Source of the DNA: Escherichia coli | GTDB taxonomy: Bacteria > Pseudomonadota > Gammaproteobacteria > Enterobacterales > Enterobacteriaceae | Assembly (NCBI RefSeq): GCF_002854065.1 | Contig: NZ_CP024147.1 | Length of the DNA stretch: 64,000 bases | Reading direction: 5' to 3' (one strand) | Shown: positions 31,221-34,200 of the stretch, one piece after another | How positions within the stretch are numbered: the first letter of the stretch is position 1 | How the letters are laid out: each line of letters opens with the position of its first letter | The notes under the pieces: model-generated | The model's input: only the letters and a program-made list of their open reading frames with translations | What the model was told of the DNA's origin: nothing | Databases searched by the model: none | Program-made: the position numbers and the translations under genes

Positions 31221-34200
31221 TTACACCTTTTCCACATTCACAAGGAAGGACTTAAACTCCGGCGTCTGCGTGTTTGCATCACCAACGAATGGCGTTAACG
31301 TATTGGCAATAAAGCCTTTTTTAGCTACGCCTTCATAGCCCCAGTGAATCGGAATACCGATGGTATCGATATCTTTGCCGTTCGCTTTCAGCGTGCGAAT
31401 ACGTTTGGTCACCACCGCTTTGGCTTTGATATAGCCACGGTTGGAGGAGACTTTCACGGTATCGCCCTGGGCAATGCCAAGTTTATTCGCCAGCGACTCC
31501 CCGATTTCCACAAACTGTTCTGGTTGCAAAATCGCGTTCAACAGCGCGTGTTTGGTCCAGTAGTGGAAGTGCTCGGTCAGACGATAGGTGGTTCCGACAT
31601 ACGGGAACTTATCGGCTTTACCCAATGCTTCGGCGTCGTCTTTAAAGATTCGCGCAGCCGGGTTCGAGATAACGTTTGGATGCAGCGGGTTAGTTCCCAG
31701 CGGCGTTTCAAACGGCTCGTAGTGTTCCGGGAACGGACCTTCCGCCATCTTATCGAGGGCAAACAGACGCCCCATGCCTTCCTGCTGCATGATAAACGGC
31801 CCGACGCCGCTACCCGGAGGCGCTGCGCTGTAGTCCGGAATATCCCAGCCGGTCCACTTAGTGCCGTCCCATTTCAGCAACTGACGCTTCGGATCCCACG
31901 GGTTACCCTGCGGATCTGCGGAGGCGCGGTTATACAGAATGCGGCGGTTAAGCGGCCATGCCCATGCCCAGCCCAGCGTGTTACCGAGGCCAGACGGATC
32001 GGCGTTATCACGACGCGCCATCTGGTTGCCTTCCGGCGTCCAGCTACCGGCGAAAATCCAGCAACCACAGGAGGTTGTACCGTCATCGCGCAGTTGGGCG
32101 AACGAGCTAAGTTGTTGGCCTTTCTTGACGATAACCGCACCGGTTGCCGGATCGGTAATATCGGCCAGCGCCTTACCGTTGCTCTCCATCGCTACTTCTT
32201 CCGACTTCGGCTCATGCGGAATGGCGTAGTTCCAGGTCATGTTCAGCACCTGGTCCGGGTTCGCGCCACCCTGTTCGGCATACATCTTGCGCAAGCGCAG
32301 GAAGATACCGGAGAGGATCTCGCCGTCAGTCAGCGCAATCCCCGGGGCGTCCGCACCTTTCCAGTGCCACTGCAACCAGCGACCTGAGTTAACGATTGAA
32401 CCGTTCTCTTCCGCGAAGCAGGTCGATGGCAGACGGAACACTTCGGTCTGGATCTTCGACGAGTCAACTTCGTTCAGCTCACCGTGGTTCTGCCAGAAGT
32501 TAGAGGTTTCAGTGTTCAGCGGGTCGATGGTGACGAGGAACTTCAGTTTCGACAGACAACCGATCACTTTGTTTTTGTTCGGGAATGAGGCAACAGGGTT
32601 AAAGCCCTGGCAGATATAGCCATTGACCTTGCCCTCTTTCATCATCTCGAAGTATTGTAGGACGTCGTAGCCTTTATCCCACTTCGGCAACCAGTCAAAG
32701 CCCCAGCTATTTTCCGCCGTCGCTTTATCACCAAAGAAGGCCTTCATCATAGAGACGAAGAATTTCGGGTAGTTGCCCCAGTAGTTTACCTGGCCTTCCA
32801 GCAGCGGTTTTGGCGTGTTGGCGGTAAGGTAGGTTTGCAGATCGGTCTGCTTCTCGCTTGGCAGCGTCATGTAACCTGGCAGGCTCTGCGACAGAAGGCC
32901 CAGGTCCGTCAGCCCCTGAATATTGGAGTGACCGCGCAGGGCGTTAACGCCGCCGCCTGCCATCCCCATGTTGCCGAGCAGCAGCTGGATCATCGCCATC
33001 GTACGAATGTTTTGCGCACCAACGGAGTGTTGCGTCCAGCCGAGGGCATACAGGAACGAGGCAGTTTTATCGTGAGCACTGGTTTCTGCGATGTATTCGC
33101 AGACTTTCAGGAACGCGTCTTTTGGCGTACCACAGATGTTTTCAACCACATCTGGCGTGTAGCGGGAAACGTGCTGTTTCAGCAAGTTCCACACGCAGCG
33201 CGGATGTTGCAGCGTGGTATCGCGTTTGGCGAAGCCGTTTTCGTCCAGTTCGTAAGTCCAGGAGGATTTATCGTACTTGCGTTTTTCCGCGTCGTAGCCG
33301 GTGAACAGGCCATCTTCAAAGCCGTAATCCTCACGCACGATCAGGCTGGCGTTGGTATAGGCTTCGGTGTATTCGCGGTTGAATTTTTCATTGTTCAGCA
33401 GGTACAGCAATACGCCTGACAGGAAAGCAATGTCAGTACCGGAACGAATAGGGGCATAGTAGTCAGCTACCGCCGCCGTACGCGTAAAGCGAGGATCGAT
33501 CACAATCAGCTTCGCGCCATTGTGAATTTTGGCTTCCATCGCCCAGCGGAACCCGACCGGGTGAGCTTCAGCGGCGTTACCGCCCATCACCACGACGAGG
33601 TTGGCGTTCTTGATGTCGACCCAGTGGTTGGTCATCGCACCGCGACCAAATGTTGGAGCAAGACTTGCTACCGTTGGTCCGTGTCAGACACGCGCCTGGT
33701 TGTCGACCGCGAGCATACCCAGCGCGCGGGAGAATTTTTGCGTTAAATAGCCGGTTTCGTTACTCGACGCGGAAGCACACAGCATCCCGGTGGAGAGCCA
33801 GCGGTTAACAGTCACGCCTTCGGCGTTTTGCGCAATGTAGTTAGCATCGCGGTCTTCTTTCATCAGTTTGGCGATGCGATCAAACGCCTCTTCCCAACTG
33901 ATTTGCTGCCATTTATCAGAACCTGGCGCACGGTATTCCGGAAACTTCAGACGGCTTTCGGAGTGGATGAAATCCACCAGGCCAGCGCCTTTCGGACAAA
34001 GTGCACCGCGGTTGACCGGGTGATCCGGATCGCCTTCGATATGGAAGATAGATGCTTTGGCGTTTTTTGCTCCGTCACCGAGGCTGTACATCAACAGCCC
34101 ACAGCCTACGGAACAATAGGTGCAGGTATTACGGGTTTCGCGGGTGCGCAGCAGTTTATACTGCCGGGTTTCCGCGAGTGCTACGCTGGGTGCAAAACCC

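Follow-up and report, generated by a model that had tools for sequence, protein, structure and literature searches.

The locus comprises fdoG together with the genes fdoH, fdoI, and fdhE on the same strand and the divergently oriented fdhD (Table 1). All positions refer to the window, i.e., the whole stretch of 64 kb of E. coli DNA that was analyzed. The order fdhD <> fdoG-fdoH-fdoI-fdhE is as expected for an FdoG orthologue of E. coli K-12 b3894, and the gene shares 99.1% of its nucleotides and 99.9% of its amino acids with K-12 fdoG, compared to 75% and 77%, respectively, with the paralogue fdnG. Judged by its sequence, the gene is thus assigned to the alpha subunit of formate dehydrogenase-O, FdoG, and not to FdnG. 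The name fdnG, which RefSeq uses for this gene, was rejected, since sequence identity and operon context both point to fdoG, as the earlier note had proposed; a further indication is the match of the gamma subunit gene to PRK10639. The encoded protein starts with a twin-arginine signal (MQVSRRQFFK...). An upstream match to FdoG1_thermometer, which rests mostly on the Shine-Dalgarno sequence and the conserved codons at the start of the gene, reached 32 bits vs a gathering score of 50 and was not retained.

Table 1. Genes and sequence features at the fdoG locus (positions in the window).
Feature	Position	Strand	Basis
fdhE, formate dehydrogenase accessory protein	28748..29677	-	309-aa ORF, colinear with the annotated fdhE of the syntenic record
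fdoI, cytochrome b556 gamma subunit	29674..30309	-	PRK10639, 453 bits, vs 244 bits for the FdnI model
fdoH, Fe-S beta subunit	30306..31208	-	TIGR01582, 478.7 bits; fdoH label in the syntenic record
fdoG, catalytic alpha subunit of formate dehydrogenase-O	31221..34271	-	1016 codons + TAA; identity to K-12 b3894; TIGR01553 over both halves
Block of 23 codons (195-217) with nearly frozen synonymous sites in Enterobacterales	33621..33689	-	per-codon identity
SECIS element, full Rfam SECIS_3 match	33631..33689	-	RF01989; begins at the Val195 codon, UGA included
SECIS lower helix, weakly supported, register ambiguous	33641..33683	-	alignment columns 7-16 with 41-49
Apical hairpin GGUAGCAAGUCUUGCUCC, predicted to bind SelB	33655..33672	-	+15 to +32 from the U of UGA (+1)
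UGA codon 196, predicted to be decoded as Sec (active-site Sec, Mo ligand)	33684..33686	-	translation; alignment to 1kqf_A position 196; PMC11903333
fdhD, sulfurtransferase needed for FDH activity	34465..35298	+	TIGR00129, 340 bits; annotated fdhD; divergent from fdoG

Translation of the frame 34271..31221 yields 1017 codons with a terminal TAA and one internal stop, the TGA of codon 196, whose letters are located on the minus strand at 33686 (T), 33685 (G), and 33684 (A) in the context ...GCG CGT GTC TGA CAC GGA CCA ACG GTA GCA AGT CTT GCT CCA ACA TTT GGT CGC GGT.... In the list of open reading frames, the gene is therefore represented by two pieces, a 5' piece of 195 aa (33684..34271, minus strand), which ends with this TGA, and a 3' piece of 804 aa (31221..33635, minus strand), which is counted from the first downstream ATG and lies in the same frame. 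Stops crowd the other two frames around 33686..33684, and since both are closed around the site, a frameshift was rejected in favor of a clean in-frame TGA. The separation of the two segments by a single in-frame TGA, as claimed by the earlier note, is hence confirmed for codon 196 of 1016. Furthermore, the 5' piece aligns to positions 1-194 and the 3' piece to positions 196-1009 of the NCBIfam profile TIGR01553, so that a single profile position is skipped at the TGA. All 820 codons past the TGA are intact.

The position of the UGA within the protein was compared to known structures by a PDB search with the first 301 residues of FdoG, in which Cys was put at position 196. The best match was the E. 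coli FdnG chain 1kqf_A (1KQF) with an E value of 2e-173. In this chain, a non-standard residue, given as 'X', occupies precisely the aligned position 196, and the matches ranked below it bear the name 'formate dehydrogenase, alpha subunit, selenocysteine-containing'. According to the alignment to 1kqf_A, the UGA occupies the position of the Mo-ligating active-site Sec of the molybdopterin FDH family. Decoding of this UGA as selenocysteine, as stated by the earlier note, is supported by this correspondence. It is also in line with the literature, according to which three E. coli genes, fdhF, fdoG, and fdnG, contain an internal TGA for Sec (PMC11903333).

A SECIS element is situated directly at this codon. 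In the Rfam scan, SECIS_3 (RF01989) matched 33689..33631 on the minus strand with 84.3 bits and an E value of 2.2e-19 over model positions 1-59 of 59, well above the gathering score of 63 bits. The 59-nt match begins 3 nt before the TGA and is the sole SECIS_3 match in the whole 64-kb window; with SECIS_2 the same element scored 28 bits only, vs 84 for SECIS_3. A single occurrence of the degenerate pattern GTNTGACAYGGNCCNNNNGTNGC was counted in the window, and none in 100 shuffled sequences. Considering this count and the SECIS_3 E value, a chance occurrence of the element is excluded. A hairpin immediately downstream of the UGA had been predicted within 33640-33690, and this span indeed takes in the UGA and the hairpin, with the Rfam match reaching slightly more 3'.

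The minimal E. coli SECIS is described as a 17-nt upper stem-loop that is separated from the UGA by 11 nt and requires U17 and G23 for the binding of SelB (PMC8659212, a review citing Liu et al. 1998). In case of the window element, the apical hairpin GGUAGCAAGUCUUGCUCC starts 11 nt past the UGA, with nt 4-14 as the 11-nt spacer, and folds into ((.(((((...))))))) with -4.5 kcal/mol. The bulged U17 corresponds to 33670, and the loop nucleotides G23 and U24 to 33664 and 33663, respectively, so that GGUAGCAAGUCUUGCUCC combines the spacing, the bulged U, and the loop G/U of the minimal element. The hairpin also fits the conserved G approximately 20 nt downstream of the UGA that was noted with the SelB structure (PMC4605307). 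As to its placement, the in-frame UGA lies inside the coding sequence and the SECIS directly 3' of it, within the frame of 1016 codons. Taken as a whole, the element is a bacterial SECIS of the E. coli type, for which binding of SelB and direction of Sec insertion are predicted from its identity to the fdnG element and from the literature.

Folding energies contribute little to this assignment. The approximately 40 nt past the UGA, the stretch for which the earlier note had suggested folding as a check, are indistinguishable in stability from shuffled sequences (z = 0.02 for 42 nt against dinucleotide shuffles). The 59-nt segment folds with -17.4 kcal/mol and z = -0.77 against dinucleotide shuffles, and even the 18-nt apical hairpin is only modestly better than its shuffles (z = -2.06; 9/200 shuffles). 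Since neither the 42-nt nor the 59-nt segment is more stable than dinucleotide shuffles, thermodynamics was dropped as evidence. The case for the SECIS is thus a comparative one, based on the covariance model and on covariation.

For this purpose, related sites were collected by scanning a species-representative genome collection with GTNTGACAYGGNCCNNNNGTNGC, which gave at least 120 loci; the matches listed comprise 105 FdnG/FdoG-type sites, 13 FdhF-type sites, and 3 that are other or false. The 65 distinct FdnG/FdoG-type 59-mers among the matches listed form a gapless alignment and originate from Alpha-, Beta-, and Gammaproteobacteria, Desulfuromonadales, Terriglobia, and an actinomycete MAG. 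In these 65 distinct sites listed, the upper helix (columns 18-25 with 29-35 of the Rfam structure) is paired to 99.8%. Changes on both sides were observed at 2 of its 7 pairs (30 cells): pair 21:33 occurs as GC (51 sites), AU (8), CG (3), and GU (3), and pair 24:30 as AU (46), CG (17), and GC (2). None of 500 shuffles reached the observed covariation score, in a control that ignores phylogeny, and sliding the 3' partner columns by 1-3 lowered the pairing from 91.7% to 27-49%. The upper helix is kept through compensatory base changes in the homologues, i.e., a conserved hairpin, whose absence would have spoken against the proposal of the earlier note, is present 3' of the UGA. Covariation affects the third positions of the Val201, Ala202, Leu204, and Ala205 codons. 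Because these positions are synonymous, the compensation cannot be explained by the protein.

The loop nucleotides G26 and U27 of the alignment (equivalent to G23 and U24) were not part of the search pattern, yet they are invariant in all 65 sites, with U27 at a synonymous third position. Columns 1-23, including U20 (equivalent to U17), are partly fixed by the search pattern, and the invariance of the 5' arm is therefore partly a matter of ascertainment. For the lower helix, the picture is less clear. In the Rfam register 85.5% of the cells are paired, both-side changes are absent, and the window itself shows A.C and A.G mismatches. A register with one bulge, taken from the minimum free energy fold, pairs 83.7% of the cells and is no better backed than that of Rfam, which leaves the register ambiguous. 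The weak lower helix agrees with the minor role reported for the lower stem of the SECIS (PMC8659212).

Compared to known systems, the closest relative is fdoG of E. coli K-12 (b3894), in which gene, codon, and operon context are all as in the window and no difference is seen in the 63 nt compared, counted from the Val195 codon. The window strain shows approximately 0.9% nucleotide differences elsewhere in the gene and a location of the locus between IS1 copies; differences of substance were not observed. The SECIS of E. coli fdnG (formate dehydrogenase-N; SECIS_3, RF01989) is identical to the window over 71 nt including the UGA, its Sec is likewise at position 196, and the structure of FdnG has been solved (1KQF). 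Being a paralogue, fdnG differs in its overall sequence, its locus, and its nitrate-inducible regulation (PMC3160892). In case of fdhF, whose SECIS is the experimentally dissected model, the UGA is followed by CAC GGN CCN as in the window, and both share UGACACGG.CC...CGGU....GUCU at equal spacing, with the GGU that carries the bulged U17 and the loop G23-U24-C25-U26 equally distant from the UGA. The upper stem of fdhF consists of 4 bp and a 4-nt loop (UGCA/GGUC/UGCA), whereas that of the window has 5 bp and a 3-nt loop, and the sequence of the lower stem and the encoded peptide differ as well (HGPSVAGLHQSVG against HGPTVASLAPTFG). The SelB-dependent mechanism of fdhF is presumably the same for fdoG of the window.

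The identity to fdnG extends over 33689..33619, starting with codon 195, one codon ahead of the UGA. Between fdoG of the window and K-12 fdnG, no stretch of identical codons is longer than this one of 23 codons, the second longest having 12, and 39% of the codons for the same amino acid differ between the two genes. Within the species this 71-mer is at least 99% identical at the best place in 5432 of 5433 E. coli records. An identical 59-mer was found at 20 loci of other enterobacteria, namely of Photorhabdus, Providencia, Hafnia, Yersinia, Klebsiella, Kluyvera, Enterobacter, Citrobacter, Superficieibacter, and E. albertii, and the 180-nt flanks of these 20 loci show mean identities of 80% and 84% (range 68-94%). 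In a per-codon profile of 24 distinct enterobacterial loci, whether identical or not, codons 195-217 reach an identity of 0.92 or more, with a sharp drop to 0.2-0.8 in both flanks. The frozen block reaches approximately 20 nt past the 3' end of the hairpin, a minor side observation. Columns 48, 51, and 54, all third codon positions, are free to vary in other Proteobacteria. A search for extra structure behind the 3' part of the block gave none (z = 0.20 for the 87-nt fold).

On this basis the enterobacterial element may carry a requirement beyond the 17-nt SelB-binding hairpin, an idea that we put forward tentatively and regard as rather unlikely. Candidates for such an extended constraint could be an extended or alternative structure, a tuning of codon speed once Sec has been inserted, or a concerted evolution of the paralogues. 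The 69-71-nt block might also owe its persistence to recurrent conversion between the genes fdoG and fdnG or to a different overlapping function, and not to SelB binding alone. The identity of the block in two paralogues that are otherwise 75% identical, its 3' extension, and the free variation of columns 48, 51, and 54 outside the enterobacteria speak for this explanation. However, conversion alone leaves unexplained the identity across genera whose flanks are 68-94% identical, the start of the block coincides with the codon preceding the UGA, and the 3' extension lacks a predicted additional stable structure. We consider this explanation doubtful, and it would add to the SECIS reading rather than replace it.

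Explanations that deny selenocysteine altogether, i.e., a real stop or pseudogene, a frameshift, or SelB-independent read-through, are very unlikely. If the TGA were a true stop, fdoG would be a pseudogene or split gene in an IS-rich, Shigella-like genome and a fragment of 195 aa would be made. Four copies of IS1 in the window, many truncated genes close to fdoG in the syntenic record, and the calling of the two halves as separate proteins by many pipelines fit this assumption. Against it, a TGA is present at the matching codon of K-12 fdoG, fdnG, and fdhF and at more than 100 sites across phyla, the downstream codons are preserved at 99.9% identity to K-12, and the SECIS is undamaged and matches the functional element of fdnG letter for letter. 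We regard the probability of a true stop as negligible.

Low-level SelB-independent suppression of UGA exists in E. coli. It might hence be argued that ribosomes pass the UGA independently of the Sec machinery, for example by a near-cognate tRNA-Trp or by insertion of Cys, and that the hairpin only slows the ribosome; the unexceptional folding energy of the element would agree with this. However, the SelB determinants U17, G23, and U24 are present at exact spacing and are invariant, including at a synonymous site (with U17 partly fixed by the search pattern), and the homologous residue in 1KQF is non-standard. Moreover, Sec is a constituent of each of the three E. coli FDHs, and the activity of Fdh-N/O is abolished in a selC mutant (PMC3160892). 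Read-through of this kind is hardly credible. The TGA at 33686..33684 on the minus strand is thus almost certainly the selenocysteine codon Sec196 of fdoG, encoding the catalytic subunit of respiratory formate dehydrogenase-O.

The 64-kb window contains no tRNA genes, and selA, selB, selC, and selD are not located in it. Since 5424 of 5426 complete E. coli genomes carry selC (tRNA-Sec), we infer the Sec machinery of the source genome from the species. The window stems from an IS1-rich genome with several pseudogenes nearby, and decay elsewhere in the pathway is conceivable.

In bacteria, the SECIS lies immediately 3' of the UGA and is bound by SelB itself (PMC4605307). By analogy to fdhF and fdnG, the C-terminal winged-helix domains of SelB would bind the apical hairpin within the coding sequence during translation of the mRNA. 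SelB would carry Sec-tRNA(Sec) and GTP, and this ternary complex would be tethered to the ribosome at the moment the UGA moves into the A site. Sec would then be inserted at the UGA in competition with release factor 2 (RF2), and translation would run on through the remaining 820 codons. The binding of SelB, the insertion of Sec in this strain, and the efficiency of insertion are expected from the work on fdhF and fdnG.

With respect to annotation, the statement of the earlier note that automated callers split or truncate the gene applies to many pipelines but not to RefSeq/PGAP, where the syntenic gene is a single CDS of 3051 nt through the TGA, named fdnG after an equivalog model; the K-12 record names the gene fdoG. 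In a collection of 15 billion proteins, the exact products of 195 aa and 804 aa are both present, each on 1000 or more contigs, and belong to clusters of 3382 and 6687 members, respectively. Some of the 195-aa fragments are misnamed as 'sulfate ABC transporter substrate-binding protein'. The site is thus a matter of annotation hygiene, since a naive ORF caller cuts a gene of 1016 codons into two products.

The Sec codon and the SECIS of fdoG are well known, real but ordinary. As fdoG is one of the three textbook selenoproteins of E. coli, nothing biologically new is added, but the comparative data provide a clean illustration of an RNA structure that is held through synonymous codon positions.

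At codons 195-217 of fdoG (33621-33689, minus strand), which include the selenocysteine UGA, 24 distinct enterobacterial fdoG/fdnG loci show a synonymous codon identity of 0.92 or more relative to the window; in the same loci, the value drops steeply on both flanks to 0.2-0.8. This frozen block extends approximately 20 nt 3' beyond the SECIS hairpin and is identical in fdoG and its paralogue fdnG. No additional structure was found.

Among the loci from the pattern scan for related UGA/SECIS sites, two (L043 and L048, of Desulfobacteraceae and Proteobacteria MAGs) represent a third formate dehydrogenase type, V-U-HGPSVAALGESFGRG, in which the sequence after the UGA fails to match the upper helix of SECIS_3. 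L069 of Streptomyces sp. ODS25 (509-531) was rejected as a chance pattern match, with no formate dehydrogenase context downstream. At the 5' end of the gene, a match to the Rfam FdoG1_thermometer (RF02778; 34242-34440, minus strand) spans the fdoG 5' UTR and start, but is sub-threshold with 32 bits versus a gathering score of 50. The Shine-Dalgarno sequence and the first codons align well, the 5' part poorly.

In thousands of E. coli genomes, the fdoG orthologue carries the RefSeq/PGAP label “fdnG: formate dehydrogenase-N subunit alpha”, whereas the gene so labelled adjoins fdoH, fdoI, and fdhE. Furthermore, public records from Cronobacter malonaticus and Hafnia alvei (proteins P0003 and P0004) give a truncated 195-aa N-terminal fragment of the FdoG/FdnG family the name “sulfate ABC transporter substrate-binding protein”, probably a misannotation of the Tat-signal fragment that has been propagated.

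Coordinates of fdoG, small RNA genes, REP-derived elements, and IS1 copies (window positions unless a record is named; L001 and L126 are records that carry this fdoG orthologue)
Feature	Position	Strand	Remark
fdoG orthologue labelled fdnG	31221-34271; L001 4730-7780; L126 11672-14722	- (window)	RefSeq/PGAP label versus fdoH/fdoI/fdhE context
Spot 42	8511-8629	+	Rfam
CsrC	9658-9911	+	Rfam
ES222	16686-16793	+	Rfam
STnc370	18683-18751	+	Rfam
naRNA4 (CssrE)	41800-42143	+	tandem array, four units, 92-nt period
naRNA4 (CssrE)	50988-51065	-	one more copy
ES036 (CssrF)	56070-56111	-	match
ES036 (CssrF)	28503-28545	+	slightly below threshold, downstream of fdhE
IS1 copy 1	1397-2165
IS1 copy 2	19550-20319
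IS1 copy 3	36994-37761
IS1 copy 4	39694-40463
Direct repeat, 559 bp	838-1396 and 2165-2723		flanks IS1 copy 1

Four known sRNA genes exceed the Rfam gathering thresholds in the window, and REP-derived elements are represented by naRNA4 and ES036. The four IS1 copies share 99.7-100% identity. The first is abutted on either side by a direct repeat, 99.8% identical and much longer than an IS1 target-site duplication. Where strain 100416 carries frvRXBA, the stretch between the last two copies retains nothing but pieces of frvA and of a porin gene, in inverted orientation; this suggests that IS1 has mediated a deletion and an inversion in a genome that is Shigella-like and rich in pseudogenes.
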